In this document: positions 373 through 20,000 of the stretch, one piece after another
Numbering within the stretch: position 1 is the first letter of the stretch
How the letters are laid out: each line of letters starts with the position of its first letter
DNA from: Chiloscyllium plagiosum
Lineage: Eukaryota
DNA: 20,000 nucleotides
Direction of reading: 5' to 3'
Assembly: GCF_004010195.1 (NCBI RefSeq)
Contig: NC_057718.1
Location: forward strand, 59,864,775 to 59,884,774
Translations under genes and position numbers: made by a program
Notes under the pieces: generated by a model
Told to the model about the DNA's origin: nothing
Database searches by the model: none
Seen by the model: the letters and a program-made list of their open reading frames with translations, nothing else

Positions 373-551
373 TAAAATGAACCCAAAGAGCTGTGAATGC
401 TATAAATCAGAAACAAAAACAGAAATTGCTGTAAAAACTCAGCAGGTTTTACAGCATCTGGGGAGGGAAAGCAGAGTTAATATTTCAGGTCCACTGACCT
501 TTCTTCAGAGCTGTTCTGCTGAGATTTTGCTCTAATTTCTGTTTTTGTAAA
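373..551 (-). mobile_element. Short Penelope-derived hammerhead-bearing element, family A, with partial inverted arm
   Basis: 413-445 (acaaaaacagaaattgctgtaaaaactcagcag) is an imperfect inverted repeat of 516-548. The minus strand contains CTGAAGA-A-AGGTC-agtg-GACCT-GAAA. Possible degenerate TSD taa(a/t)tcttgt at 363-372 and 552-561. Homologous to 12460-12660. Confidence 0.7.
478..508 (-). ncRNA. Minimal hammerhead ribozyme motif (type I, PLE-like), CpG-decayed
   Basis: Reverse complement CTGAAGA A AGGTC AGTG GACCT GAAATATTA: both core boxes and a perfect 5-bp stem II. The stem III palindrome is AATATT instead of AACGTT. Confidence 0.6.
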
Positions 552-1199
552 TAATTCTTGTCCCTGCCCTCCATCTGAAATGACCCATTTCAGAGTAAAG
601 AGGAGTTCATCCTAACTTATCCATGGGTTACTTTGGTGGTAGCTCCATTGAAGTTTAGGGTTGCAATTTGCTTTCACTGTCTTAATCTTTTGACTGTCCC
701 CACACACAAAAAATAACTCATCCTTTCCCTACTTCACTAGCTGCTTCACTTTACTGGGCTCCCATTTCTGTTCTATGATTGTTGCCATTCTCGTTTACTG
801 CTACCCAACTGGGATTGACCTTCCAATTCCATACAGGCAGAATCTAATATTCAGACAACTAGACCCAGACATGAAGCAAGCACCTTCAGTTAGTTTGCCC
901 CAGTTGCTAAATTCATAGCTTAGGTTGCAGACCCTTGTAGCCAGCCAGTTTGGCTCCAGATTCCAGTCTACAGTCACAAAGGTCTGGACATTAATCTTCA
1001 GTGCTTACCAAGCCCTGACTTTGACTGCAATTATCAGCATGTAAACCTTCTTTAATAACGCCCAGACATTCACCACCAGGCTCCGGACTCACTAATCAAT
1101 TTTCGGATTCATTCTCTTCAACCGTCAACAGGACCTAGGTTCTCTTCCTTTCTTTCCCCCACCATTAGGCCTAAATATATTTGACTATTATTTGGTCCC

Positions 1200-1291
1200 T
1201 GAAAAGTGTGTTGCTGGAAAAGCGCAGCAGGTCAGGCAGCATCCAAGGAGCAGGAGAATCGACGTTTCGGGCATAAGCCCTTCTTCAAGAA
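1200..1291 (-). mobile_element. Short Penelope-derived hammerhead-bearing element, family B (partial)
   Basis: Reverse complement ttcTTGAAGA-A-GGGC-ttat-GCCC-GAAACGTC-gattctcctgctccttggatgctgcctgacctgctg aligns to 16887-16962. Core C3 is changed to U (plus position 1288). No TSD found. Confidence 0.8.
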
Positions 1292-1309
1292 CATGAGTCT
1301 CCAATAGTT

Positions 1310-1450
1310 CAATGATTCTTCATCATGCTTCAGATTTTCAGCTCATTTGAAAATTGAATTCATGGACATTATGTCCTCACTCAATTTGACTTTCCATATC
1401 AAGTCTCAAATCTTCTACCACAGGGAGTCCCTTGACGTTATCATTGCAAT
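1310..1450 (+). mobile_element. Highly degraded L2-like APE endonuclease fragment
   Basis: Manual translation from ~1357 gives EFMDIMSSLNLTFHIKSQIFYHRESLDVII, resembling the L2 endonuclease segment F..LLSS.NL..HV..PTH..G..LDLVI. Confidence 0.4.
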
Positions 1451-3434
1451 ATTTCCATGTACATTTCCCTGCCTACTTCAATGTCCTTATACCTACTTTA
1501 TGCTGTGACAAAGAAACCTTTCCAGGTCTTTGGTTCCAACTCTCAGATTCTTACCTTTTTCGCCAATGATTTTGTTCATGTTTTAACACCTAAATCCACA
1601 TCAAATGTAGATGACGTTAGACATTGCTGATTTTTCTCATGAGGACCTTTAGATACTGCTCCTAACTCAGCTGAAACATAGATGCCTGTCAGAAGAACTA
1701 GTGGTTTATTAATGAAATTAATTCTGAAATGATTACATAGAATGTATAAAGAAGTATTATTTCTGCTGATTGTATAGACACTGACAGAGGAATTCATAAT
1801 TTAATAGTCCATAAGAATGCAGGAGATCAGATAGAAGAAATTTGTTTTTGCAATGTGCTTAATGAACATAGAGAATGATTGAGGCCAGAGATCATTTTAA
1901 AAGAAATGGACACATTTTTGATTTGAGTAATGATTTAGAAAAACGAGAGGTTAGGGCATTGGGATTAATCATAAATTGCTAGCAATGACATCAAATAAAC
2001 AGAATTATCAGTTGCTTCCCACCCATATGCATTTTCTGCATATGTTTAATTCGTGCTTAGTAACCACACAAAGTTCACCTCAAATACAGAAAAACTCAAA
2101 ATGATTTTCAATGTTGCAGAACATAATGGAATTTACAATTTACCAACAGGCTGACAGTCCACATTATATGTCACAGGAAATTTAAAATGCCCATATCCAT
2201 ATTTTTTTAAAGAAAATTAAACAAAAATTATTTCCATTTCAATCCAACTTGTGTTCTGTCACCAGTAGTGCCAATTCTGGAAGTGAAGCAAAGTGAAACA
2301 AATGATAGATAATTTTTTTTTTTAAATCTAGTGTTTGTTTCACTTCATTTATGTCAAGAAATGTATATCAAAAATGTAGCCAATAAAAATAAACCTTCAC
2401 TGGAAGTACCAGCAGTGCTTATTCCAGGAGATTCCTGCAATAAAAAATTGAAAAGTTAAATATTAGCAATTTGTATGTTGCATTTAATTTATTTCAAAAT
2501 AAACAATAATAAGTATTCCTTTAACCATTAGCTAATTGTAAAAGACTTTGGCCTTAATTATGCTTGTAGCTAAATATGTAGTGGAAGTAATGTCCAGTTG
2601 ATTAGTTCTGACAACCTTCAGTTCCACCTTCTAACTGATTTTGACAGTTGATGCCAACTAACTTTAAATCGAGTGAACACCGCTCCTGTTATTATGAAAA
2701 AAAGTTGACACATGAGCTGAAACGTTCACTTAGAGAATAATATTTGGCAGCTAAGAAAGGACAGGATCAGGTTTAGCTGCGATAACTTCTTGGACCGAAG
2801 AGAATGGCAGCTCTCAAGTTTTGTTCTGGCTGCTATTGTAGCAAGTTATAGCATCCAGCCAATGCTTAACAACATTGTTGTCTCGTCAGCTGATGAGGTG
2901 GTCAATATTCAGTGAACTTTCTGCTGAGGTGACTTGGAAGGCAGAGGGGTACTTAATTATGCACAGAGTGAATTCAGGCTTCTTTCTGGCTTCTGCCCCA
3001 ATTAAGTCGAGGGCAGAAGGACTTGTGGACTACCTTGCTGCAATCCCTTCCAATCAAAGGCAATGAATTCACTCAGTGGTTGCTTTCCTTCCCTGCTGCT
3101 TTTCAACCAGTGGCAGGGACTCTGATAAGCATAAACCTGTCAGGGTGGAGTGGTTCATCATTCAAAGGCACTCAATCCCTCATCAAGGTAATCTGTATCA
3201 GAGAGGGGAAACACTACTCCCCTACTCCTACTCCCTACTCCCAGCAACACCCTCACTTTGCAACTTCCATTGCAACTCACATTGAGCAGTGGCCTGACTT
3301 TAGGCTTCTGGTGGATGCATTGTCAGTGGTTACCACCCAGCCCTGATGTGCCAAACTGCTTAGATAGATCTCACTGAAATACTTGTGTTCTAGAAATAGT
3401 CACACCCTTAACGAAGCAGATCCAGTACATTTAC

Positions 3435-3570
3435 AACACTAGCATCTATCTGGTAATGTGAAAAATTATTTAAGTATGACCTAACCTCAAAAAGGAAGAC
3501 AAATCCAACTCAGTCAATTAATACTCTATTAGTCTCCTCTTGATTTTCAGCAAAATGTTGAAAGGTTTTG
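3435..3570 (+). mobile_element. Degraded non-LTR RT fragment (WK.A.V.PVHKK.DKSNP.NYRPISLL region)
   Basis: aaaaaggaagacaaatccaactcagtcaatta...attagtctcctcttgattttcagcaaaatgttgaaagg is a decayed KK.DKSN..NY..ISLL...SK..EG. It resembles 5355-5465. Confidence 0.6.
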
Positions 3571-3599
3571 AATACAGTTTGTCCATAAACTTTGATTCC

Positions 3600-3770
3600 T
3601 GATTAAAAATCTGTCTCAGCCTTGAATATACTTAATGACCCAACTTTGCCAGTACTGTGAGATAAAGAATTCCACAGATTCACTATCCTCTCTGTGAAGA
3701 AACTCACCCTTATCTCTATCTTAACTGGATGACCTTTACTCTGAGATCATACCCTCTGGTCCTAGACTCT
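3600..3770 (-). mobile_element. CR1-clade LINE 3' ORF2 fragment
   Basis: The reverse complement resembles the CR1 terminal motif SRTRGH.L.....FF..RV.NLWNSL, also present at ~11040-11140 and 18665-18770. Confidence 0.75.
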
Positions 3771-5034
3771 GTAGTAGACATTGACTTCTACGACTTACAG
3801 CAATTAGACTCACACTAGCTGGACGATGAGGGAGAAAAATCCCTTTCTGGAGTAAGACAAAGCTGACATTTGATGCAAAGCAGTGGATGAGCAGTTATTG
3901 AAGCACTGTAGCATGGAGAACTTACAATCTTAGCAATGTTAAGTGAATGCTCCACTGCTGATCTCTGGTGAGAAGAAATAAAATAATTGTCTCTAAATCT
4001 GGCAGACATTGTAAATGTCTCCAGCCCCAATGTGGTAGAGGCCAGATGCATAAATGTTCATTGCAGTCACCTTTACTTGCATTGACAATGTAGTCCTTGC
4101 CTGCTCTGGAATGAAGTTGTGGCACCAGCAGTTGGTAGATTTCAGTGAGTATTTAATCTGTTCTAATAGAGTGAGATACAAGAAACAAGGGGGAAATAAT
4201 GAAGTATATTGAATGCAAAAGTTAAGTTGTTTTATATCTTGAAAAGAAATTTACTGTTTGCAGGATTGAGAATGAATGGTTTAAATTGTTCCCTTTGTGG
4301 ATCAAGAGAGATTGAGTGCCATTGCATCAACTAGTACCATGTCATTAAAAGGGCACTTACTCTATTAATTATGAGCCCTAACTTTCTGACGCAATGTTAT
4401 TGGGCAATTAATTTTCAAATCCAGCAAGCCCTATTAAGGAGGGTAAGGACGAGATGATGTTTGTGTGAGGCACAGAAGTGGTGTAAATCAACGAGTAATT
4501 TGTGGATATTTGCAACTCCTCTACTATCTCATCAATTTAGGATTGCTGACTAATTGACATGTTACAATCGTGAACATGTTAACAGTTATTTTTCCAGCAT
4601 TGCAGGCACAATGTTAACGTTATGCAACCCAGAAGTGGACATGAGTCAGAATATGAGTCTTATTAGCACTGGCTATCCTTGATGTAATAAAGCAGCTTAA
4701 ATCAACAATTATTTTAGCTTATGGTAAATAGGATTTCATTGAAAATTACCAATCCTTAAATGAAATAGGATAAAAGGATGCTGAATGCTAAGCACCTCAC
4801 TTGAAAAGTAATTGAATTTAATCAATTATTTAGCATGGAAAAATAGTTATATTGATTACTTTAAGTTAATTTGAATGACTCTAATTAAATTACCAATTAC
4901 ATGTTGCTGCTGTAATTGTCATGGTTACTTTTATCTTGTAATTGCTACAAGCATCATATATACTACTTGTCTGTTAACCTCTGTGTAAATGAGTTTCTGT
5001 TTCACGCAAATTTAAAGAAGCAAAATTTCAGCTA

Positions 5035-6140
5035 CTGCATCATCGTGCCACATCCAGTCATGAATGATGGTGGACTATTAAACAATGAACTGGAGGAAGA
5101 GGCTCCACAAACATCCCTTTCCCCAATGATGGTGGAGCTTCCAACATGTTGTATGATTTGTACATATCATCAGTCAAAAGTGCCGAGTAGATGGTCTAGT
5201 TTAATTTCCTACTGAGTTCTTTAGTGTCAAATATTGGAATCTTCCCAGGTCCTGTACAATGTGAGCTATGGCAAAAACAATGGACAATACCGGCTGAATT
5301 GTCACCCAAGATCGCCGTAGTCCCTAACCAAGCTTTTCCAGTCCAGATATAATGCTGATATCTGCCTGACAATGTGAAAGGTTGTCAGGTGTGTACTGTC
5401 CACAAAAAAGAAGCAGAATAAAACCAATCTGGTAAATTACTGCTCCCTCTCAATTATCAGCAAAGGGATAAATTGCTGTCAAGTCACGTTTAGTCTGCAG
5501 TGGCCTGCTTACTGGTACTCAGTTTTGGTCCTCAGATCTGGACCATGTTACAGTCTTGGTTCAAACATTGCTACAAAAGCTGAATTCCAGCAACAAAGGG
5601 ATAATGATTGCCCTTGATATCAAAGCAATGTTAAACTGGCTATGGCATCAAGAAAAAATGGTAGAACTGAAGTCAGTGGAAATCAGGTGGCAATCTAACC
5701 AATGTTCAAAGTTGTTCCCATCACAATGGAAAATGTTTGTGGATGTTTGAGACCAATGAGCTTAGAGTCAGGACATTACTGTCAGGGTTTTCTCAGAGGT
5801 GTCCCAGGCTCAGTTATCTTCAGTTGCTTCATTATTGGTCTTGTCTTCATTATATGTTCAGAAGTGGGGATATTTGCACCTTTTCAGATAGTGAAGTCCA
5901 TGCCTGTGTGGAGTAAGACCTGGATAACATTCAGGCTTGGAAAAGCAGCATTCACATCAATTAAGTGCCAGCAATAACTATATCTCACATGAAAGAGTGT
6001 GGTCATTTCTCTGTGATGTTCCACTGCATTGCTAGCATTGAATCCAACACCATCAACATTCTGGTGCAGAGGTTGGGGTTGGGATTCACCAGAAATTTAG
6101 CTGGATCAACCTTACTATGGCTAGAAAAGAAGGCCAGAGG
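5035..6140 (+). mobile_element. Old, heavily mutated non-LTR (CR1/L2-group) RT region
   Basis: Fragments across frames: VHKK..NKTNLVNYC, IALDIKAMLNWLWHQ (cf. ALDIKAAFDRVWH), GVP-GSVIFSCFI (cf. GVPQGSVLGP.IF.CFINDL). Many stops and frameshifts. Confidence 0.75.
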
Positions 6141-6234
6141 CTGTCATTTCTTTGAATATATTTTGACTCCTTGGTTCTAAATCCTTTTTAAAATTATGGA
6201 CTTTCCCCTCTTTATCTTTGTAGTGTCATTGAAT

Positions 6235-6547
6235 CCAACAACCCCATCACTTCTACCTTCTCTGAACTCTTCTTCTTACTCTGGCCTTTTGAGCATTTCC
6301 TTACCACTGTGACAGGCTGAACTTCATGAATCCTGATTCTATTCTGGAGTGTCCTTCTTAAAATACCGTCATGTATCTAGCATGCTCTCATTCTTTAAAA
6401 CTTCCCTTAAAATGCATCGCTTTGACCAGGATTTTGGTAAAATCTTTTAAGCATTTGCCTCGCTTTCACTTTTATTTGATTATGTTCAACCAGTTTCTTT
6501 AATTTCTTTTCTCAATAATGCTGCTGTCTAAATGCATATTGTTATTG
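6235..6547 (+). mobile_element. L2-type LINE/SINE 3' end relic
   Basis: ctttaaaacttcccttaaaatgcatcgctttgaccaggattttggt resembles the L2 FK..LKT.LF terminus, followed by gctgtctaaatgcatattgttattg, similar to the L2 3' tail. Confidence 0.5.
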
Positions 6548-6568
6548 CATACCACACTGTCTGCTTTT

Positions 6569-6621
6569 CCTCCCAAAATGGAGCACCTCACACCTAGGTG
6601 GTGGGTGTATGGAATGAGTTA
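6569..6621. mobile_element. Two tiny abutting CR1 fragments in opposite orientation
   Basis: 6569-6595 on minus encodes RCEVLHFGR; 6596-6621 on plus encodes RWWVYGMS in one frame and VVGVWNEL in the CR1 frame. Confidence 0.5.
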
Positions 6622-6645
6622 CATAGTAGGTTGTTAAGTACAGCT

Positions 6646-6768
6646 AGGAGAAAGTGAGGACTGCAGATGCTGGAGATCAGAGTCAGATCTGGAAAAGCTG
6701 GAAAAGCACAGCAGGTCATGCAGCATCTGAGGAGCAGGAGAAACAATGTTTCAGGCATAAGTCCTTCA
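6646..6768 (-). mobile_element. Short Penelope-derived element, family B, with 12-bp TSD
   Basis: Flanked by identical ttaagtacagct at 6634-6645 and 6769-6780. Homologous to 16887-17008. Decayed hammerhead remnant atgaaggacttatgcctgaaacattg on the minus strand. Confidence 0.85.
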
Positions 6769-6825
6769 TTAAGTACAGCTCTCTAGCCTAGACCTCTCAC
6801 TTCATATACTCAATCCAGACATTGA

Positions 6826-7005
6826 GGAATGCCCTGCCTGCCAATGTAGTTAACTTAGCAACATTAGGGGCATTTAAACAGTCCTTGGATAAGCATATGG
6901 ATGCTGATGGGATAGTGTAGGGGGATGGGCTTAGATTAGTTCACAGGTCAGCGCAACATCGAGGGTCGAAGGGCCTGTTCTGCACTGTATTGTTCTATGT
7001 TCTAT
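6826..7005 (+). mobile_element. 5'-truncated CR1/HER1 3' end
   Basis: Encodes (W)NALPANVVNLATLGAFKQSLDKHMD, followed by the gagggtcgaagggcctgttc 3' stem-loop and a (gttctat)2 tail. Confidence 0.9.
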
Positions 7006-7239
7006 ACTGATATTAGTATCATGTCATCAATTGTATTATCATGCTTTATATGAATCTCATTGTTCCACATTTTCACAAAGCTCTATCTACTTGGTTTTCA
7101 TTTTCTAGTAATTTACTTTCACTTGCTTATACATTCTTTATAATCCATTTTGCCAGAGTGGCGAGGAGAGAAGATGAGGTGAAGTGAGGGCTACCGGGAA
7201 GGTAAAGGCTCAATTTATATTTGGGCAGTGGCTAAGCCC

Positions 7240-7263
7240 GAGACATTACACGTGTAGTATCTC
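7240..7263. promoter_or_regulatory. 24-bp near-palindrome centred on an E-box (CACGTG) in the CR1 5'UTR
   Basis: gagacattaCACGTGtagtatctc: 10 of 12 Watson-Crick pairs, E-box at 7249-7254. E-boxes have been proposed as internal promoter elements of CR1 5'UTRs. Confidence 0.55.
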
Positions 7264-7397
7264 CCTCCCGCCCTGCTCCTCTAACCGGAAGAAAAAGACT
7301 CTGTAAGGTAAGGCTTTTATTTCTTTCTTATCATTCTTTTTCATGTATTTAAGTGCATTGTTTGATTTTAGTTAGTTCATATAAAGCTAAGCTTACA

Positions 7398-8345
7398 ATG
7401 GCCGGGACCTCAGACCCATGGCATGTGCCTCTTGCTTAATGTGGGAGTTAGGAACGTGGCTGATGTTCCTGACTCTTACAGCTTGCAAGAAGTGTGTCCA
7501 GCTGCAGCTGTTGTTTGACTGCATGACGGCTCTGGAGCTGCGGATGGACTCATTGTGGAACATCCGCGATACTGAGGAGGTCGTGGATAGCACGTTTAGT
7601 GAACTGGTAACATTGCAGGTTAGGATTGCTGAGGGAGACAGTGAATGGGTGACCAAAAGACAGAAAAAGAGTAGGAAGGCAGTGCAGGTGCCCCCTGCAG
7701 TCATCTCCTTCCAAAACAGGTATACCGTTTTGGATACTGTTGGGGGAGATGGTTCACCAGGAGAGGGCAGCAGTTGTCAAGATCATGGCACCGTGGCGGG
7801 CACTGCTGTTCAGAAGGGCGGGAAAAAGTCTCGTAGGACCATAGTCATAAGAGATTCTATTGTGAGGGGAGTAGATAGGCGGTTCTGTGGCCGAAAACGG
7901 GACTCCCGGATGGAATGTTGCCTCCCAGGTGCTCGGGTCAGGGATGTCACCAATCGCCTGCAGAGCATTCCAAAAGGGGAGGGTGAACTGCCAGTTGTCT
8001 TGGTGCATATAGGCACCAACGATATAAGTAGAAAATGCGATGAGGTCCTGAAAGAAGAATTCAGGGAGCTAGGAGAGAAGTTAAAGAGGAGGACCTCAAA
8101 GGTAATGATCTCGGGATTACTTCCAGTGCCACATGCTAGCCAGCGTAGAAATGAAAAAAATAGGCAGGGTGAACACATGGCTTGAAGGATGTTGTAGGAG
8201 GGAGGGGTTCAGATTTGTTGGACATTGGGACCGGTTCTGGGGAAGATGGGACTATTACAAAATGGATGGTCTACATCTGAACCAGACCAGAACCAATGTC
8301 CTTGGAGGAGTTTTTGCTACTGCTGTTGGGGAGGTTTTAAACTAA
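7398..8345 (+). pseudogene. CR1 ORF1p (zinc finger, coiled coil, SGNH/GDSL esterase), frameshifted
   Basis: ATG at 7398; CASC...CKKC; LQLLFDCMTALELRMDSL heptads; esterase blocks IVIRDSIVR (GDS changed to RDS), CLPGARV, HIGTND and DGLH. Small indels near 7405 and 7448-7485, and a +1 shift in the A7 run at 8154-8160. Stop TAA at 8343-8345. Confidence 0.93.
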
Positions 8346-10779
8346 TGTGGCAGGGGACTGGGAACCAGAAGAGAAAACAAGTAGGCAGCGAGGTGGAGAC
8401 TGGAGACTGTAAGAATTATGAAGGGAAGAGTAGGCAGACAGCAGATAAGCGCAAAAGAACTGATGGCCTGAAATGCATCTACTTTAATGCCAGGAGTATA
8501 GTGTGTAAGGCAGATGAACTTAGGGCTTGGATTGGTGCCTAGGAGTGTGACGTTATTGCAATCACAGAGACTTGGTTGAAGGAAGGGCATGATGATTGGC
8601 AACTAAAGGTTCCAGAATATAGACACTTCAGACGGGACAGGGAGGGAAGTAAAAGTGGGGGTGGAGTTGCATTGCTGGTCAGGGATGATATCACGGCTGT
8701 GCTAAAGGAGGACACTATGGAGGTCGTGGCTAGTGAGGCATTATGGGTGGAGCTGAGAAATAAGAAGGGTGCAGTTACATTATTGGGGCTGTATTACAGG
8801 CCTCCCAACAGTGAGCTTGAGGTAGAAGAACAAATAGGTAAACAGATTATGGAAAGATGTAGAGGCAATAGGGGAGTGGTGATGGGAGATTTTAATTTTC
8901 CTAACATTGACTGGGATATACTTAGTGTCAGAAGACTGGATGGGGTAGAATTTGTAAGAAGCATCCAGGAGAGTTTTCTAGACCAGTATGTCAATAGTCT
9001 GACAAGGGAAGGGGCCATATTGGACCTGATACTGGGGAACGAGCCAGGCCAGGTGGTAGAAGTTGCTGTGGGGGATTTCTTTGGGAACAGTGACCACAAT
9101 TCTGTAAGTTTTAGTATATTTGTAGATAAAGATAAGAGTGGTCCTAAGGGAAGAGTACTAAACTGGGCCACAGCCAATTATATCAAAATTAGGCAGGAGC
9201 TGGGTAATGTGGATTGGACACAGCTATTTGAAGGGAAGTCCACATTTGATATGTGGGAGGCTTTCAAAGATAGGTTAAAGATAGTGCAGAATAAGCATGT
9301 CCCGTTGAAGGCAAAGGATAGAAAGGGCAAGATTTGTGAACTGTGGATGACAGGAGAAATTATACGACTGGCCAAGAGGAAAAGGGAAACGTACATAAGG
9401 TCAAGGCAGCTAAGAACAGAACAGGCCCTGGAGGAATATTGGAAGAGTAGGACAAGTCTTAAATGAGGAATCAAGCGGGCTAAAAGGGGTCGTGAAATAG
9501 CTTTAGCGAGCAGAATTAAGGAGAATCCCAAAGCACTTTATTCTTATATAAGAAGCAAGCTGGTAACTAGGGAAAGGATTGGTCCACTAAAGGATAATGA
9601 AGGAAGGCTGTGTGTCAGACCTGAGAGAATGGGTGAGATTCTGAATAATTACTTTGCATCAATGTTCACTGAGGAGAGGAACATGGTGAATCTTGAGATT
9701 AGAGATAGAAGTTTAATTAGTCTGGGTCACATTGGCATAAGTAGGGAAGATGTGTTGGGTAGGCTCGAGGTTATTAAGGTGGACAAATCCCCAGGACCAG
9801 ATGGGATCTATCCCAAGTTACTGAGGGAAGCAAGAGAGCAAATAGCTGGGGCCTTGACAGATATCTTTGTGGCATCCTTAAATACAGGTGAGGTGCCAGA
9901 GGACTGGAAGGTTGCTCATGTTGTCCCCCTGTACAAGAAGGGTAGTAGGGATATTCCGGGTAACTACAGACCGATGAGCCTGACGTCGGTGGTGGGAAAG
10001 TTGCTGGAGAGGGTACTGAGTGATAGGATCTATTCATTTTTCGAAAAGGCATACAACAGAGATAGGCAACATGGTTTGGTGCGGGGGAGATTGTGCCGTA
10101 CCAACTTAAAAGAGTTCTTTGAGGAAGTGACCAAGTTGATAGATGAAGGAAGGGCTGTTGATGTCATACATGGACTTTAGTAAGGTGTTTGATAAGGTTC
10201 CCCATAGTAGATTAATAGAGAAAGTGAAGTCACATGGTGTGCAGGGTGTTCTCGCTAGGTGGATAAAGAACTGGTTGAGCAACAGGAGACAGAGAGTAGT
10301 AGTTGAAGGGAGTTTCTCAAAATGGAGAAAAGTGACCAGTGGTGTTCCGTAGAGGTCAGTTTTGGGGCCACTGTTGTTTGTAATATACATAAATGATCTA
10401 GAAGAGGGCACTATTGATATGATCAGCAAGTTTGCAGATGACACGAAGATTAGTGGAATAGCAGAAAGCATAAGGGACTGTCAAAGAATACAGGAGGATA
10501 TAGATAGACTGGAGAGTTGGGCGGAAAACCCAGACAAATGTGACGTGATGCATTTAGGCAAGACTAATTCTAGAGCAAATTATACAATGAACGGAAAAGC
10601 CTTGGGGAAAGTTGATGGGCAGAGAGATCTGGGAGTACAGGTCCATTGTACCCTGAAGGTTGCTGCACAGGTGGATAGAATGGTTAAGAAGGCATATAGA
10701 ATGCTTGCCTTCATTAGACGGGGATTGAGTATAAGAGCTGGCAAGTCATGTTAAAATTGTACAGGACGTTGGTTTGGCT

Positions 10780-10811
<32 letters not shown>

Positions 10812-11253
10812 AACATTACTAAAAAGATGGGGACGCTTTGGAGAGGATGCAGAGAAGGTTTACGAGGATGTTGCCTGATATGGAAGATGCTAGCTATGAA
10901 TGGAGGTTGAGTAGGTTAGGTTTATTTCCATTAGAAAAAAGGAAAACGAGGGGGTCCTGACTGAGGTTTACCAAATCATGAAGAGTATAGACAGGGTGGA
11001 TAGAGACAAGCTTTTTCTCAGGGTGAAGGATTCCATAAAGAGAGGTCATACTTTCAAGGTGAGAGGTGTCAAGTTTAAGGGGGATACATGCGGCAAGTAC
11101 TTCACACAGAGGGTGGTGGGCGTTTGGAACGCGTTGCCAGCAGAGGTGGTAGAGGCAGGCACGGTAGATTCATTTAAGATGTGTCTGGACAGATGCATGA
11201 GTAGGTGGGGAACACAGGGATACAGATGCTTAGGAATTGGGCGACAGGTTTAG
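8345..11253 (+). pseudogene. CR1 ORF2p (APE endonuclease and reverse transcriptase), disrupted
   Basis: YFNARS, ITETWL, GGGVALLV, YYRPP, MGDFN, ILDLILGN, SDHN, SPGPDGI, NYRPMSLTS, MDFSKVFDKV, SGVP*RSVLGP, KFADDTK. In-frame stops at 8540-8542, 9464-9466 and 10350-10352, two more near 10790-10822, and frameshifts near 10168, 10720 and 10950. Confidence 0.96.
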
Positions 11254-11524
11254 ATAGTAGATTTGGATCGGCTCAGGCTTGGAGGGCCGATGGGCCTGTT
11301 CCTGAGTTGTAAATTTTCTTTGTTCTTTGTTCTTGTTTATTAACTCAATAATTTACATTAATATTAGAATCATCACCTGCCCTCCACCTCAAATCTGAAT
11401 CTCACAGGTTGATAAATCTGGAACTGACAGGACATGTTCTCATCTGGTTAATTCAAGTTCAATGCTTGGAAGATGCTTTTGTACTGTGTCTGGAATATTT
11501 AGATCACTCCGTACACCATCTGAT

Positions 11525-11794
11525 CTAGTCCAAGTATGATTGCTCACATCCTCTGACAGCCATACGCAGACTTGCATTGAATAGGGTCAATGCTTTTCTT
11601 TTCATCCTGAAATTCCCTTTAGGCCTTCTGACAATGGAAGATCTCGGCTGATCGGTTAGTCTGATAACTGAGGCTTCTGACTTCCTGTGCCTTAACCAAA
11701 CTTTCTGCTTTAGCTTTAATGTTGACAGAGATTTCACTACTGTTCTTGCTTTTTGTTGGAGAATGCTTTCGCTAAATTGTTTAAACCTCACCAT
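11525..11794 (-). mobile_element. Probable Gypsy/Ty3 LTR-retrotransposon integrase C-terminal relic
   Basis: LSTLKLKQKVWLRHRKSEASVIRLTDQPRSSIVRRPKGNFRMKRKAL resembles the Gypsy integrase tail pattern L..L..G..VW......A.V.....PRSY.V....G..RRNR..L. Confidence 0.5.
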
Positions 11795-11939
11795 AGCTAT
11801 GTTTGGCTTGAGGCTGTGCTTTAAAACTTTACATCTGTTTTTAACCCTGGTGGTTAGGACCTATTATTCAAGCTTAGACCATCTGTAGCTTGTAATATAG
11901 AAGGGAATGTCAGATGAAAATATTGTCATTCAATCCCAC

Positions 11940-12135
11940 CTCAAACACAACCGCAGCAATAGCCCTCCCATTAATGACTGGCTCAATCTCATTCATGAGG
12001 ATATTCCTCCTTCAGTTAGTTCCCACTCTTCTTTACAGAGGGATGTACTTGTCATGGATGAAAAGCTGACAGTGAATGCAAACTGTGCAATGGAGGTGTC
12101 AGACCTCCAGCAGTGCAGTGAATGTGCAAGGTAAG
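11940..12135 (+). mobile_element. Possible Gypsy pol relic (region before and including the integrase CxxC)
   Basis: INDWLNLIHEDIPPSVSSHSSLQRDVLVMDEKL...QQCSECAR loosely resembles I..GWP.....P.....YW..R..L.V.DG.L...C..C. Weak, and opposite in orientation to the adjacent relic. Confidence 0.25.
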
Positions 12136-12459
12136 AGATTCATTCAAGAGGGGAGGGGTGAATACTGATGTCAGTGGTAGGATGTAGCTTTTGAAGGTAC
12201 ACTGACAGATATTGGCAACTTATATGAGGATATTTGACCTCTTCTGCCATCCAGTCACTTGGAATGACATTTTTGGCACTGATCTCCACAGCCATGTTTC
12301 TCAGGTCAATGTCACTTTCTACAGGAACTACCGCAGCCATAATATAACTCCACTTCTAAGTGGTGCAGTCTCATTTTAAGCAGTGCAGAAGAGACTTGGC
12401 TAGTTCTAAGCACTCCTGATTTGGCTCCCTGTAGAGTAATCCAGACTACGAACATTTTT

Positions 12460-12660
12460 GAACAAAAAAATAAAGAATTGCAGATGCTGGAAATCTGAAA
12501 CAAAAATAGAAACTGTTGGGAAAAAAAAAATTGGCAGGTCTGGTAGCATCTGTGAAGAGAACGCAGAGTCCATGTTTCAGATCGACTGACCCTTCATCAG
12601 ATGTTCCAGTCAGGTTCTGGACAGACCTGCTGAGTTTCTCCAATAATTTCTGTATTTGTT
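12460..12660 (-). mobile_element. Short Penelope-derived hammerhead-bearing element, family A, with partial inverted arm
   Basis: Homologous to 373-551. Minus strand 12600-12570 reads CTGATGA-A-GGGTC-agtc-GATCT-GAAACATGG. 12622-12660 is an imperfect inverted copy of ~12499-12542. Confidence 0.75.
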
Positions 12661-13323
12661 ATAACAAATAACATTAGAGTTGTCTGAATATGGAAATAAT
12701 TGAAATGAACAGACAGCATGAAGTGGGGCTGCTGGTTGCATGGGTTAAACCATCCCTGCACCTATAGATGTAATTGTTAACTTTATCTCTTGAGATCTCC
12801 CATCACATGCAGAGCCTTTGGCAGAATTCAATGTGGAGTTTATCACTAGGGGGAGCTGTGCCCTAGCTACTGTACCCAGAAGACAACTCTGATTGGCCGC
12901 AGAAGCCTCTCCTCAGCTGAAAGTGACAGCTGGGCTTTATTCTCGATTTTGTGGGAGGACAGTTAGTAATTTAAAAGGAGCGGTTACTTTTCATGTGCGC
13001 TTTATTTATACACATTATACACAAAGGAATTGAAGATGTTGACTTATCGGTCCAACTGTGTTGTAAACTGCCATAAATCACTTTTGAGGGGTTAGAGGGG
13101 CTTACTTTGAAAAGTTAATATGCTCTTTCTGCATCTGTCCTTGATTAATTTTACCTTTCTTTTATAATTAAACCTCTAATTCCAGTTTGTGCAGTTCTAA
13201 GATGCAGAAGTGGCAAATTCTACATGTATGGCATCATACCTTATGCAAAATGTATTGAAAATAGAGAAACAAAAATGTGACAGAAATGTTGTGGTTCTGT
13301 TCACCAAGCTGGGAATTTGTGTT

Positions 13324-13363
13324 GCAGTCGTTTCGTCCCCTGTCTCGGTGACATCCTCAGTGC
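13324..13363 (-). ncRNA. Hammerhead ribozyme motif, cleavage triplet mutated (GUC to GAC)
   Basis: gca-CTGAGGA-T-GTCaccgagacagggGAC-GAAACGAC-tgc; stem I is gca/tgc. Confidence 0.7.
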
Positions 13364-13617
13364 TTGGGAGCCTCCTGTGAAGTGCTTCTGTGATCTTTCC
13401 TCCGGCATTTATAGTGGTTTGAATCTGCCGCTTCCGGTTGTCAGTTCCAGCTGTCTGCTGCAGTGGTCGGTATATTGGGTCCAGGTCGATGTGCTTATTG
13501 ATTGAATATACCGACCACTGCAGCGGACAGCTGGAACTGACAACCGGAAGCGACAGATTCAAACCACTACAAATGCCGGAGGAAAGATCACAAAAGCGCT
13601 TCACAGGAGGCTCCCAA

Positions 13618-13657
13618 GCACCGAGGATGTCACCTAGACAGGGAACGAAACGTCTGC
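13618..13657 (+). ncRNA. Hammerhead ribozyme motif, core U4 changed to C
   Basis: gca-CCGAGGA-T-GTCacctagacagggAAC-GAAACGTC-tgc; the predicted site would follow 13654. Confidence 0.7.
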
Positions 13658-16600
13658 AACACAAATTCCCAGCTTGGTGAACAGAGCCACAACAACGAGC
13701 ACCCGAGCTACAAATATTGTAACAGAAATTCAAATTTAAATTTCTATTGTAATAACAATGTTTTATTACAATTTCTATTGAGAACAAAGAGGTGCTGCAT
13801 TCTGACTGCTTTTATAACTACTACTTTACAACAATTATCTCTTGATTGGTATTTTGTATCTTATTGTCAATAATCTATGCCCAACAGACTTTTAATGATA
13901 CTCAACAGTAAATTTGTGTTGGATTCAAAATAAATTATCATTTACAAATGCTAGAATACCTAAATACCTTTGCAAAAGACAATAGGAAATTGCAAGATTT
14001 TACTTTACCAAGATTAGTTTTGATCTGATACTTATTTTTTAAAAAGTGTGATTTTAGCCAATTAAAGCTAATTAAATTAATATGCCTCCAACAAACTGCA
14101 TAAACATGACCCAGACAGTTTAAATGTTTGCTGGTATTACTGATTGGCAAATGCTCAAGAAAGATAAAGAATTCAAACTTTTGTTTTTACTTCCTTGTAA
14201 ATGGAGACAAACCAGATTTGATACAAATTGAGTTGAAAATTCATGTTTATGGGCATCCGTAACAGTCACAGTTAATTCAGTAGAAACAAGGGGAGTTGTC
14301 CAAACTGAATTGATTTTTTACATTGAAAGTGAATTTTAGAACAAAAACTTTCACCTTGGTGTTGACTGAAGTTGTGAATAAGATTAATATCAAGATAAAC
14401 CGAATGTTTATTGCATTCATTTGCACATTTTTGCTCTAGGTCAAACATCTATCATGTATTAGGCAAGTAACTTGACGCCTCCCATAGCATGAATTGACTT
14501 GGGCAACTTTCAGCATAAATGTTGGGATCACATTTAATTTGGATTGTAATCATTTAAACTGAAAGTGCTAACAGGTTGAAAATATAAATGGGAATTCAGT
14601 GTTCTAAATAGTTTCTACAAAGTTCCCTGTTAGTTAGTTACAATTGAAATAATTGGCATTATCTAACCAACAAATCTGAGCTGAATGGAAATCTGATGTA
14701 TAGCAGATTTCTTGATGTGTTATTCCAGTGCCCTAACTGAGAGTCAGGATTGAGACATGTTGGCAAACTATAAAAGCAAGTCTCTGGAACAATGAAAGGC
14801 TGCAGACATCTGATAAATGTATAGTGAAATGCCAATGGGAAATGTCAAACAAATCAGGTCACTACAAATCACATTACTTGAGAACTTCAATAAAATAAAC
14901 TTAAATTATGCATTTTTATTTCAGATTATGTAGAGTGGGATCCATGTTAGTAATATCTTCCTATGACCTACATAGAAATAGAAACTGATTCATAGCCACA
15001 GAGAATCTTTAGGTATCCACATAATTATGATCCTATATTTTTTTGACCTGTGAAAAGTAATGATGACTGGAATACAGATTTCAAAGTCATTTGAAATTAG
15101 CTTACCAAATGATTGCTAAAATTGGTATCAACCAACTGATATATTCTGAATAACATTACCCAACCCAGGTTCACTCAAGGACTTTTGAGTTCAGCTGTCA
15201 ACAGATAAAAAAGTTCCTGGCTTGTGACACAGATTGGGATAAACAGTTATTTCTGAGTATGATTTATTATCCAACAGTATGATAATATGATCAACTGACA
15301 GGCTGTAAGATGTACTTCTTTCAATGGATAGTGAAACATACTGGTTAGTGTACTTGATAAATGGGAAACAAGTTCTATCATGGATAATATTGACAGTAAC
15401 AATATAATGGCAACTGGGCTCAATTATTTAAAATTGGCTGGCTACCAGTGTTCTGTACAATTATTGCTGTCTGCAATTTTAACCTACACTTCTGAGTAAG
15501 TCACAAGCCTGTTTGTATGAAACTTTTATGGTTCCTCTTCAAATACACTGATTGGATTCAATTACACAATTGGACTGACTACAGTTTGTACTGGTGTGCT
15601 ATTCTGTAAATTTCGAGGCTGAGAGCTGTTGAATGGAATATGCAACAGCTTGATTCAGATCTGCAAAACAGAGGGATGCAGCGTGAAGGTTGACCTAGAG
15701 CTTGCATTCTTGCAGCTATGGGTTAAGAAAAACAAAGGCATGTTGCTAATAATAAGTGAAGTACATTTCTGTAAAACGATTAGTTGTTAAGTAATCTTGA
15801 AACAAGGCTCTCAGAAGCATTTAAAGAAATTAAAGTTGATTAAAGAAAATATGGAAAGAATTACAACTTCATAAATTATACTTTGCTCCCAAAAAACTAG
15901 AAAGTATTTTTTCCATAATGGATACAGATAAACCAATGTCTCCCAATTTTTCTTTTAGGACTCATTTCAATAACGAAGTGGAATTGAATTCAAAAACAAT
16001 ACTGTAGATTATTTGACTTCTATTTGACACAGAAATACGGTGAAACCTGAAAATTACAGAAACCTAAAGGGACTGGCAGCTGATGTCCTCTTTTATACAG
16101 GTGTCCTTTTTTTCATAAAGGTCATTTTATATGTGTAACTTTATTTCTAATAATCTTTTGTTATGCAATTATGATCATATAATCAGTTGCACAATGAGAA
16201 TTACTGATAGTTTTGCGGAAGGTATAACAAAACGGATGTGGCAAGTGCTGTGCATGCACAGTGGGATATGTTCCTGATAGCAAAATGGAAAATTGTACAA
16301 TATGGGATTAGGTGCTTTTGCATCTTCTGGCCTGCATTGTCAACAATGCTATATTTGGAAGTGGGGAATGTGACTTCAGAAACGATCCAAACTGACAGGA
16401 CCAAAAACCAATCGAGGAGCAATTATCACAATTTCCATTCAAATTCAGTATCATCAATGGAACATTTCAAAGTGTGATTTCAGGTTGTGTCCTGTGTTTT
16501 AGTAGTAAAGGGCTTTGTGCATTGAAAGCTGTCTGTGGTTCATAGCTTGGCAGTCCCTGTTTTCAATGTATCTCCGTTATCTTTTACAATGTAAGTAATT

Positions 16601-16841
16601 TGGGATTGTCAATAAATAGCTGCTTTATGCAGGTTGCTGATTTTTGAAAGTGTTAATTTTTCACAGCAATTACTACACACTGAATTAATATAAGCTGTGC
16701 TAAAGAAAACCTATATTTACTGAAATGACAAAATTCAAAGTACCTTCCAATTACTATATTAGGCTACAATGGCAAATTTGAGACAAATGACAAAGACACT
16801 CCTTGACTACTTACTTTCTGCTTGTGCCCCTGTTGACCTTT

Positions 16842-17008
16842 GGAACAGGAGATTCGACGTTTCGGGCACAGGCCCTTCTTCAGGAATGAAGAAGGGCCTG
16901 TGCCCGAAACGTCGAATCTCCTGTTCCCTGGATGCTGCCTGACCTGCTGTGCTGTTCCAGCAATAAAGTTTCAACTTTGATCTCCAGCATCTGCAGACCT
17001 CACTTTCT
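16842..17008 (+). mobile_element. Young Penelope-derived hammerhead element, family B, with 5' inverted duplication and 15-bp TSD
   Basis: Perfect TSD cccctgttgaccttt at 16827-16841 and 17009-17023. Perfect 41-bp inverted repeat 16842-16882 / 16887-16927 with a ggaa spacer. Confidence 0.92.
16852..16887 (-). ncRNA. Intact minimal type I hammerhead ribozyme
   Basis: attc-CTGAAGA-A-GGGC-ctgt-GCCC-GAAACGTC^gaat: 4-bp stem I (attc/gaat), 4-bp stem II, palindromic ACGT stem III and a GUC triplet. Predicted cleavage between 16856 and 16855. Confidence 0.85.
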
Positions 17009-18153
17009 CCCCTGTTGACCTTTAACTAGTTCTCTCACAACCAGTCTACAATTTAGATAATCTTTAGTTGGTATTTCAACCAGTAAAGGGGCCTTACTTT
17101 CTACACTTTTAAAACACAGCAGAAGAAGTATCAAGTTCCAAGTAAATTATCCATTTAGAGCTTGATGACCAATCTACATGAATCAGATAGATTGATGTAG
17201 CATTGCACTTTAGTTCCATTATCTTCCTGCAGTTGCTGCAGTATAAGTGGATGAGTTTTGCCAATGCAGATCAATTTATCAAATTCTTTTTACCTCCACT
17301 GATAATCACTGTGAAAAAAACTGAACTTCCCTTAGTAGCTGTAACTGTAAAATTAACACCAAATATTTATTTATGTGGATTTCAAACATAAGGTACAAAT
17401 ATTCTCAAAAGGCCACCAAGTAACATAAATTTGCATCTCAAATGAGTACATTCCAATCCAGTAGGAAAACATGAACACAGAACTTGTCTTTAAGGACAGG
17501 GTAAATGTCTAATTTTTTAATATATTTTATATGAATGTGTATTTTGTTCATTCATGAACTGCTACTTAGAATATTAGGAATATTTATCCTACTCCAAGAT
17601 GACTTAACATTTTGCACAGTGAATATTGAAGGTAGGTTACAACATGAAAGTATTGACATCTCTATGCAGACTAGATTGTGGTGTTGCCTACTACACTGGG
17701 GGGAACCACTGAAAAGAAAAGCCCCTGAACGTGGATCCAGGGACCATGATACATTATTAACCTGTACCCTTTGCTTCTGATACAAGCAGCATGTCCGACT
17801 TGCATTGCCTGCTAATTGCATGATTACTGCTTGCAGCCAGCACTACATATGCATTTGAGTGGCTACATGTCTTAGCTGGAGGCCTAAGTTTATTTAAATC
17901 TCATTATCACCAGCATCCCTCCATCTACATAAAATAATGGATGCCTTCATTGGCTTTGGATGGCTTCATATAGTGTACTTTTACTGATGGCTGAAGAGAG
18001 CAATCTATTAGAGAAAGAATCTGCTACAAATGTTGCATATGAGGTTATCGTGTGTCATTGTGGTGCACTATTTGGTATTGGCACCTGACATTGAACTACT
18101 GTAGCCACCAATTAACATGATGGTGTATCTCACCTCATAGATAACATTATCAC

Positions 18154-18300: not shown

Positions 18301-18405
18301 AAAATTAACGGAAATGTCCAGATCACTCCCCTGCCTCCACCATGAGTCTTCACAGCCAGCAAAAGCTACAAAGCCATTTCTCTGTGTTGCTTGTTAGTTT
18401 CTCTC

Positions 18406-18958
18406 ACATTGGTAAGGCCACTGTTGGAATATTGCGAGCAATTCTGGTCTCCTTCCTATCGGAAGGATGTTGTGAAACTTGAAAGGTTTAGAAAAGATTT
18501 ACAAGGATGTTGCCAGGGTTGGAGGATTTGAGCTATAGGGAGAGGCTGAACAGGCTGGGGCTGTTTTCCCTGGAGTGTCGGAGGCTGACCTTATAGAGGT
18601 TTATAAAATCATGAGGGGCTTGGATAGGGTAAATAGACAAAGTTTTTTCCCTGGGATGGGGGAGTCCAGAATAGAGGGCACGGGTTCAGGGTGAGAGGGG
18701 AAAGATATAAAAGAGACCTAAGGTGCAACTTTTTCACGCAAAGAGTGGTATGTGTATGGAATGAGCTGCCAGAGGAAGTGATGGAGGCTACTGTGATTGC
18801 CACATTTAAAAGGCATCTGGATGGGTATATGAATAGGAAGGGTTTGGAGGGATATGGGCAGGGTGTAGGCAGGTGGGACTAGATTGGGTTGGGATATCTA
18901 ATCGGCATGGACGGGTTGGACGAAAAGGTCTATTTCTGTGCTGTACAACTCTATGACT
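18406..18958 (+). mobile_element. 5'-truncated CR1/HER1 copy
   Basis: TLVRPLLEYCEQFWSP...FTRMLPGL...FFTQRVVCVWNELPEEV...FKRHLDGYM, followed by a 3'UTR ending ctctatgact. Confidence 0.95.
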
Positions 18959-19733
18959 TTAAGTGAAAATCAATGTATATAAATTCCATGCTACATTTGC
19001 AAGCATCCTTGAAGTAGAGGCTTTAGGCATTCTACAGTTCTTCTGGGTCTGGCCACCCCTTCATACAAGATATCCTAGAGAATTGCTCCACCTTCCATCT
19101 CGCAAATATGGACAATAGGCACTACAGGAATGCAGAGGTATAGCCAGTTGCCATGTGTGTGTAACATGGTATGGTTTGATTTATACATTTAGCATGTTAT
19201 GTTCACTTGTGGTGGCTATTAACTGTGTGGCCAATGGGCAAGTTGGAGTTGTGTTTGCTGTTAACTCACTTGCATGAGTCAGCCACTAAAACACAGGCTA
19301 GAAAGGCACCGTGTTAGTTGTTTTTATCCTGTGCCTCCTTCTCTTCCTTTGCTCCTTCTTCCTCCTCAGCTCTTGGTTTTCGGCCACTTGCCTACAGTTA
19401 GTGGCGAGGGTTTTGTTGATTGTGGTTGTGCAGCAGGTATCAGATTGCAACAGTATACCTCCAGAGTGGTTCAGGAAGAGACAGCATTATTTTAGCCCAC
19501 CAGTGGTTAGCTCCATTGTATTTTTCATGGCAGCATGACTTTCCTTGTGCATATGCATGGGTACATGTGCATGTACTTGTGCATGGGTTGTGCACTGGAC
19601 CAAGGAGCCATGTCATCATTAAACAGCACTTATTGCCCAGTGGCTATCATCTGTCACCTACATTTGAGTCAAATATCACCAACTTCAGCCTCGAAGGGAC
19701 AAGGTTCCACCTTCGTAGCCATACAGTGCTCTG

Positions 19734-20000
19734 AGACAATAGACAATAGACAATAGACAATAGATGTGGGAGTAGGCCATTCAGCCCTTTGAGCCTGCAC
19801 TGCCATTCAATACAATCATGGCTGATCATTCCTAATCAGTATCCTGTTCCTGCCTTATCTCCATAACCCTTGATTCCACTATCTTTGAGAGCTCTATCCA
19901 ACTCTTTCTTAAATGAATCCAGAGAGTGGGCCTCCACTGGCTGGGCCTCCACTGCCCTCTGGGACAGAGCATTCCACACAGCCACCACTCACTGGGTGAA
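19734..20000 (-). mobile_element. CR1-clade LINE 3' end, continuing beyond the window
   Basis: (agacaat)4 tail at 19734-19761, then gtaggccattcagccctttgagcc (3' hairpin). Minus-strand coding reads FTQ*VVAVWNALSQRAVEA...FKKELDRAL. A 13-bp duplication lies at 19927-19939 / 19942-19954. Confidence 0.92.

Follow-up and report, generated by a model that had tools for sequence, protein, structure and literature searches.

We have analysed six short insertions that carry a hammerhead ribozyme motif in a 20,000-nucleotide stretch of the Chiloscyllium plagiosum genome (3.56 Gb), NC_057718.1 positions 59864775-59884774 (C9), referred to below as the window. An earlier sequence-only reading had described them, from a shared hammerhead layout, as a multi-family system of short retroelements derived from Penelope-like elements (PLEs). 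All six insertions are present where that reading had placed them, except that the last ends at 17010 and not 17008, and five of the six belong to only two related families, A and B, the remaining one representing family C. This density, six in 20 kb, is by hand arithmetic about twice the average of a random sample of 60 evenly placed 10-kb stretches (582,046 called bases). A loose hammerhead pattern (CTGANGA..GAAA) gave seven matches in the window, a number reached in one of 200 shuffles, against 2.13 expected. With a strict descriptor combining the core with stem II pairing there were four sites, at 508, 12600, 13360 and 16883, each of them on the minus strand, where 200 shuffles averaged 0.17 and never exceeded two. 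The copies at 1200 and 6646 also belong to the families, though their cores have decayed.

Family A is represented by two fold-backs. The insert at 373..551 (minus strand) is an old fold-back of a Neptune-type pseudo-long terminal repeat (pLTR), as assigned below, whose sister copies continue into a GIY-YIG frame; its long arm lies at ~514-371 (minus) and its short inverted arm at ~516-548 (plus), the core at 508-483 retains the core letters with a mismatch in stem I and one CpG decayed to TpA, and a search for a clean target duplication found none. In the second, 12460..12660 (minus), a long arm at ~12604-12456 (minus) is accompanied by a short inverted arm at ~12620-12660 (plus), and the core, 12600-12575, has G at the cut position. 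Family B contributes two single pLTR arms and one fold-back. The arm at 1200..1291 (minus) begins ~4 bases ahead of the core and ends at the short 3' site defined below, C3 of its core (at 1288) being mutated, and no target duplication was found within 30 bases. The arm at 6646..6768 (minus) bears a tail, starts inside a decayed core and is flanked by a 12-bp target duplication (6634-6645 and 6769-6780). The fold-back at 16842..17010 (both strands) is a member of B1, the youngest subfamily of family B; all 40 scored hits, among them the window copy itself, are 100% identical over 169 bp. It comprises a full arm with tail, 16887-17010 (plus), which lacks C3, and a 46-base inverted arm, 16842-16887 (minus), within a 13-15 bp target duplication whose copies end at 16841 and 17023. 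The family C insert, previously delimited as 13288-13717 and taken for a short derived retroelement, is a truncated Poseidon-type PLE that carries coding sequence. It occupies 13288..13715 (both strands), 5'-truncated and inverted, with 190-bp arms that are 95% alike and both contain the end of the GIY-YIG frame; its cores are decayed, that at 13360 (minus) lacking U16.1 and that of the partner arm at 13621 (plus) lacking U4. The flanking 14-bp duplication has two mismatches (13274-13287 and 13716-13729), its 8-bp exact part being computed and its 14-bp extent read by eye.

A flawless core with both stems occurs in one of the six inserts, the only such minimal type I hammerhead in the window, at 16852..16887 (minus). 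The core of this 16883 motif is intact, stems I and II have 4 bp each, stem I pairing 16887-16884 with 16855-16852, and cleavage is predicted between 16856 and 16855. At the level of the families, the minimal type I features are all observed: the core, the extra base, stems I and II and self-complementary positions 15.2/16.2. Covariation was examined in 15 hand-picked motifs from four families, in which 86% of cells pair, compared with 13-44% in slid controls. Seven of eight pairs change on both sides, a pair count reached by 58 of 500 shuffles, and the number of cells involved, 30, compares with 9.7 in shuffles and was reached in none of the 500. The support for stem II, for which covariation had been proposed, is partly circular because nine of the 15 motifs were taken from a scan requiring stem II pairing; stem I was not selected on, and therefore only stem I provides an independent test. 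The AGGTC/GACCT pairing, cited earlier as a difference between families, is found in one decayed copy only. At the sequence level, the minimal hammerhead is a genuine family trait, and its stems covary. An Rfam scan of the window returned no hammerhead family at E values up to 10, and its microRNA hits at 16845-16929 were set aside as reflections of the palindrome. The predicted fold of a sister-copy fold-back transcript is a single long hairpin of -198 kcal/mol, a structure that would block the ribozyme. A fourth, older hammerhead family, with its own stem II and a GIY-YIG remnant upstream, was seen outside the window (L089:9651, L097:4485 and L117:9541, L numbers denoting loci).

Longer relatives indicate what these arms are parts of. 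Among 63 family B arms in the random sample, 13 run into a pyrimidine-rich untranslated region (UTR), 30 start at the ribozyme and 20 inside the arm, and several family B sisters continue upstream through the UTR into a GIY-YIG frame, fragments of which are present in 11 of the 60 stretches. Beyond the 3' UTR, sister copies carry a frame with a zinc finger and GIY-YIG; the Pfam match to GIY-YIG (E 1.5e-4, 22.4 bits) falls slightly below the 22.6 cut-off. At the B1 locus L213, GIY-YIG is present together with an N-terminal frame, a Cys linker and a pLTR that shares 96% identity with the window arm, and three others (L212, L215, L216) extend over ~3.7 kb between frame start and pLTR, with assembly gaps intervening. 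Family A sisters have the same kind of frame upstream (L231, E 3e-23; L247, E 2e-20; L068, E 1e-12), and the Cys linker (CX2-5CxxC) before the endonuclease is seen both in the L213 translation and in family A remnants. Families A and B are thus assigned to the pLTRs of Neptune-type PLEs, a name that we adopt from the linker and not from a reverse transcriptase tree. The N-terminal frame of B1 (L160, L220:5144-5657) also contains a variable 36-bp tandem repeat encoding a proline-rich unit, the probable reason for the assembly gaps in long B1 copies. A Cys linker before GIY-YIG characterises Neptune and Nematis (PMC8557442).

In family C, the end of the GIY-YIG frame in the window copy matches that of a sister with 89% identity over 56 amino acids (E 3e-29). 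The distance to the inverted arm varies widely among 30 sister loci, with reverse transcriptase and GIY-YIG coding pieces upstream; there is no Cys linker, the frame starts inside the hammerhead and truncation is variable. Family C is accordingly an ordinary truncated, inverted Poseidon-type insertion, of a form drawn for PLEs in PMC8557442. Across the families, the hallmarks of PLE insertion are seen: an inverted pLTR, a one-sided tail of 30-40 bp and a target duplication. A miniature inverted-repeat transposable element with terminal inverted repeats and fixed-length duplications, the outcome named earlier as one that would overturn the PLE interpretation, is ruled out by duplications of 10-17 bp, unequal arms and variable junctions. 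The Penelope origin proposed from sequence is borne out, and mobilisation by a PLE reverse transcriptase is supported. The proposed search for full-length PLEs with reverse transcriptase and GIY-YIG ending in the same sequence yielded long relatives, with no intact frame in 16 loci.

The very high copy number that had been suspected is also evident. Family B forms 51 clusters in the random sample, or 88 per Mb, a few of which are cross-hits to family A; a decayed family A query gave 22 clusters and family C six. Scaled to the genome, copy numbers are estimated at ~300,000 for family B, >100,000 for family A and ~37,000 for family C. B1 arms number 19,180 genome-wide and the window junction has 880 exact matches.

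Copy ends were mapped in two sets of B1 arms, the first consisting of 82 arms chosen by position in the first 16 Mb of C1 (omitting two listed L122 hits, both extending upstream) and the second of 101 arms that retain a core, drawn from the loci spanning the first 100 listed places, some of which also supplied the first set. Positions are numbered from the U of the CUGA box as 0, which puts the start of stem I at -5 and predicted cleavage between +26 and +27. Two classes of 3' end ~35 bases apart are observed, 30 of the 82 arms ending at a short site, 48 ending 32-42 bases further and four between. At the 5' side, 49 of the 82 begin at -8 to +1, seven beyond -15 and three at the cut site. In the second set, 71 of 101 begin at -1 to -8 (40 of these at -4 or -5), two begin at -9 to -15 and 28 further upstream with scattered ends. 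The same 5' edge occurs in non-inverted arms, and three of four pLTR arrays leading into a frame start begin at the edge base (L157, L171 and L173, with L170 the exception). The edge bases resemble an initiator consensus. Penelope has an internal promoter (PMC2377424), a rotifer pLTR contains an initiator-like motif (PMC3846280) and the PLE tail, of 30-40 bp and one-sided also in PMC8557442, has been traced in vitro to two internal reverse-transcription starts in an anole element (PMC11167929).

The ribozyme lies inside the copies, and therefore the template was uncut; since 71 of 101 arms start just before the core and only three of 82 at the cut site, uncut RNA was likely copied from its start. 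We read the six inserts as pLTR pieces of endonuclease-bearing PLEs, five of Neptune type and one of Poseidon type, the short Neptune-type copies most likely being complete copies of the first 93-135 bases of uncut RNA. Family membership, the sisters reaching the coding region, the target duplications, the two 3' classes and the 5' pile-up at stem I are direct observations. From these, the following course is proposed. RNA would start at -5, where stem I begins, driven by a promoter within the pLTR, and the reverse transcriptase would use one of two internal start sites at the 3' end of the pLTR, with insertion likely occurring by target-primed reverse transcription. A start in the leading pLTR would run off at the RNA start after ~93 or ~130 bases, priming from both cut DNA ends followed by microhomology joining would yield fold-backs, and a jump onto another RNA would yield tandems and frame-pLTR chimeras. 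In the short copies the hammerhead would be an inherited passenger, decayed in most cases. In vitro, the main substrate is uncut RNA (PMC11167929), and for the inversions an alternative proposal is self-priming on an antisense template (PMC3846280).

The edge could instead mark a structure, the enzyme stalling on 3'-pLTR RNA at a folded or dimerised hammerhead, or hopping across the ribozyme nick with the cut piece still paired, and the coincidence of the edge with the 5' strand of stem I, the scattered ends of the longer arms and the mixed cap evidence given below would all be compatible with such premature stops. A stop would, however, be expected at the 3' side of the structure, ~27-31 bases further in, where only three of 82 ends lie, whereas the observed one comes after the entire motif has been copied, and leading pLTRs begin at the same base; stalling is accordingly regarded as quite improbable. 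A splice acceptor was rejected as the cause of the edge by reasoning, as no constant upstream exon joins it; in Drosophila Penelope, an intron ends at helix I (PMC4209133). That every copy is a variable 5' truncation of an autonomous element, the outcome said earlier to defeat the non-autonomous claim, is only half true: 5' ends pile up at one point, and larger non-autonomous derivatives of the same subfamily exist. An observation touching the 3' side is that 60 RNA reads with loose ends and a long T run lie at L213:2546 (agreement 0.57), just past an AATAAA in the B1 pLTR and close to the short 3' site; the pLTR may supply a poly(A) signal.

Fold-backs were examined in 30 of the scored loci, in which the usual form is a 217-bp head-to-head unit. 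Target duplications of 10-17 bp are present in 29 of the 30, and in 26 the inverted arm terminates at or close to the short 3' site; inverted-pair spacing ranges from 60 to 378 bases in the first 100 listed places. A single palindromic master for the 217-bp copies was considered and rejected as the main source, since the query with 40 identical hits selects its own junction and unbiased copies vary; because junctions vary, there is no single mini-master. Comparison of arm with arm in 11 older fold-backs was uninformative, the partner being clearly closest in only a few. When 166 B1 arms were compared over 88 bases, 109 were identical, 90 of them short and 19 extended, and the sole recurrent minor haplotype likewise occurs in both classes (three short, one extended).

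These data bear on whether solo pLTR copies are self-sufficient units resembling short interspersed elements (SINEs), possessing promoter, ribozyme and reverse-transcription start sites, transcribed in place and recopied in trans, with much of the family descending from short copies. The fixed 5' edge, the very high copy number and the 880 copies of one junction would be accounted for, B1 pLTRs do drive the non-autonomous composites described below, and pLTRs are sufficient in cis in a rotifer (PMC3846280). Were this correct, the 130-base Neptune pLTR would be a complete mobile module whose promoter start overlaps stem I of the hammerhead, solo and fold-back copies would be sources, forming a SINE-equivalent layer of several hundred thousand copies, and host DNA would have become an amplifying passenger at L220. 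Opposing it, no short-only haplotype was found among the 166 arms; the 26 of 30 fold-backs whose inverted arm ends at or close to the short site, each with its own duplication and unique flank, appear to have been made anew; recopied composites look different, with ragged far ends and shared flanks; and the 880-copy junction uses a 3-base microhomology and is one of many. As to the fixed unit length and 5' end of a SINE-like family, the data point both ways, 71 of 101 arms starting at the edge and 28 extending, with two 3' ends and variable junctions. Both the self-sufficient unit and the mobile layer that it entails appear unlikely to us. The sequence-only reading's separate, non-autonomous SINE-like families A and B are not sustained, in that sisters run into a Neptune-type frame and the short and extended copies have haplotypes in common.

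Recopying of larger units is nevertheless documented outside the window. Six C1 loci share an identical 233-bp three-piece fold-back junction, and nine separate loci share non-repetitive sequence beyond one arm, amounting to 1.4 kb in L220, sequence for which no match was found in the random sample. A 183-bp piece of the L220 host sequence has 107 candidate matches, 40 of 40 scored being identical. All of 30 composite loci match back to the B1 arm with ragged far ends, and their junctions are of three recurrent types (10, 13 and 6 copies) plus one other. The young composite at L220:2525-5143 (C10 near 5.886 Mb) combines a B1 fold-back, 1.4 kb of non-repetitive host DNA and an older piece of family B with additional host DNA; composite loci comprise L220, L192/L193, L366-L376 and L378-L407. 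As read from these sequences, RNA extending through host DNA into a B1 fold-back has been copied many times, in more than one round. The pLTRs of B1 thus act in trans and non-autonomous mobilisation occurs, but as a composite, and is not demonstrated for the mini-copies. Because a shared flank and a ragged far end mark recopied fold-backs, most 217-bp units do not look recopied. There is precedent in kind for host-DNA capture by pLTRs in Adineta vaga (PMC3846280). Separately, an internally deleted B1 with its frame start joined to the UTR is present with the same junction at separate loci, L157 and L159 (junction at -113) and probably L166, a possible second non-autonomous lineage.

Direct tandem arrays were also seen elsewhere, with four B1 pLTR units at L151:938-1788 and three at L218:1286-1774, at a period of ~205-290 bp and with hammerheads intact, and by their sequence these arrays are the best candidates for dimeric cleavage. 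They fit the definition of retrozymes in bioRxiv 10.64898/2026.07.22.740005, and it could be asked whether the window copies likewise arose as retrozymes, from RNAs cut by the ribozyme, circularised and reverse-transcribed into the genome. However, the six window copies include no direct tandem, the copies have two fixed 3' sites and one 5' edge and not ends at the cut site or at random, and no joined-back unit-length reads occur in the RNA run that matched, such that this origin is hardly credible. Apart from the inserts, the window contains a long broken long interspersed element (LINE) at ~7150-11330 and shorter LINE 3' pieces at 6890-7005, 18390-18960 and 19720-20000, which by eye we take to be of CR1 type.

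Several observations weigh against the copying of short pieces from uncut PLE RNA that we prefer. An uninterrupted full-length frame was sought in 16 long loci and none was found, gaps or insertions intervening, and reverse transcriptase is visible only as fragments read by eye (L070 and L137). Genome-wide, the core has 12,971 exact matches and the 25-mer immediately upstream has 5,541, so that up to 43% of copies may extend and the pile-up is weaker than at the C1 tip; these counts are rough, one 25-mer further upstream having 8,424 matches because other subfamilies share it. In three of the 30 fold-backs, the window copy at 16842, L023 and L027, the inverted arm falls well short of the usual start site, and these could be truncated recopies of fold-back RNA, and L220 demonstrates that fold-backs can be recopied as units. 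The search for a short-only haplotype had low power, the subfamily being so young. An extra G is the mark of a copied cap in L1 (PMC11702581). At the edge genome-wide, the extra base is G in 1,322 cases and T in 214, but inverted junctions make up 17 of 30 sampled G cases, and microhomology accounts for most of these; the excess seen in a mixed set (10 of 16, p 0.006) is not seen in a positional set of solo arms (2 of 9, p 0.27); a cap-derived G, its results being mixed, is not used as support. One poly(A) single-cell run yielded 880 matching reads without a peak of starts or ends and, as 5' ends were not kept, is uninformative; a second single-cell run, with no matching reads, is equally uninformative for RNA ends. 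None of the listed element carriers is on record as RNA.

The inserts add new or unlisted members to kinds of PLE that are known, as is their ribozyme, and the fold-back shape, the one-sided 35-base tail and the 10-17 bp duplications are PLE features already described. Like insertions of other endonuclease-bearing PLEs (PMC8557442, PMC3846280), they have head-to-head arms, a tail on one arm, a target duplication and a hammerhead in the pLTR, together with heavy 5' truncation, partial tandems and, as in Neptune and Nematis, the Cys linker before GIY-YIG. They differ from the insertions described in those texts in that most young copies are pLTR only with one start base, in target duplications of 10-17 bp as against 8-10 bp in rotifer examples, and in a copy number estimated in the hundreds of thousands. 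The core, the extra base before stem II, G10.1-C11.1, the self-complementary 15.2/16.2 and the short stem I agree with metazoan PLE minimal type I hammerheads (PMC4209133), which were found in fish Neptune, Poseidon and Xena, mostly singly and in some cases as close pairs on opposite strands; stem II differs, having 3-5 bp here, and no cartilaginous fish is named in the available part of that source. As in the Anolis Poseidon element PAc (PMC11167929), two internal reverse-transcription starts bound the tail and the family C start codon lies at the beginning of stem II. In PAc, insertion in vitro does not require the ribozyme, and the accessible text makes no mention of 5' ends piling up at stem I; unlike PAc, families A and B are of Neptune type, with the ribozyme after a long UTR and a frame starting beyond the tail. 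Animal non-LTR retrozymes, found in the one chondrichthyan sampled (bioRxiv 10.64898/2026.07.22.740005), are similarly derived from PLE pLTRs with a type I hammerhead and occur as dispersed monomers, but are defined by at least two tandem ribozyme units, whereas those in the window occur singly or inverted, and autonomous-type sisters share their sequence. The Adineta vaga captures (PMC3846280) resemble L220 in that host DNA was moved in trans between pLTRs, but are single events, in contrast to at least 40 identical copies and three recurrent junction types for the L220 composite. In the literature covered, which included few subscription journals, no paper was found that dealt with these families in cartilaginous fish or described 5' ends piling up at stem I.

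What goes beyond the textbook account is the pile-up of 5' starts and the kilobase-scale host-DNA composite. How PLEs transpose and what their hammerheads do are open questions in the field, and the ~19,000 near-identical B1 arms preserve a record of where copying starts and stops. In that record the ribozyme was copied uncut, and one base is the likely start of the RNA. The L220 composite indicates that fold-back insertions are not always dead ends and that host sequence can be duplicated by this route in a vertebrate genome.

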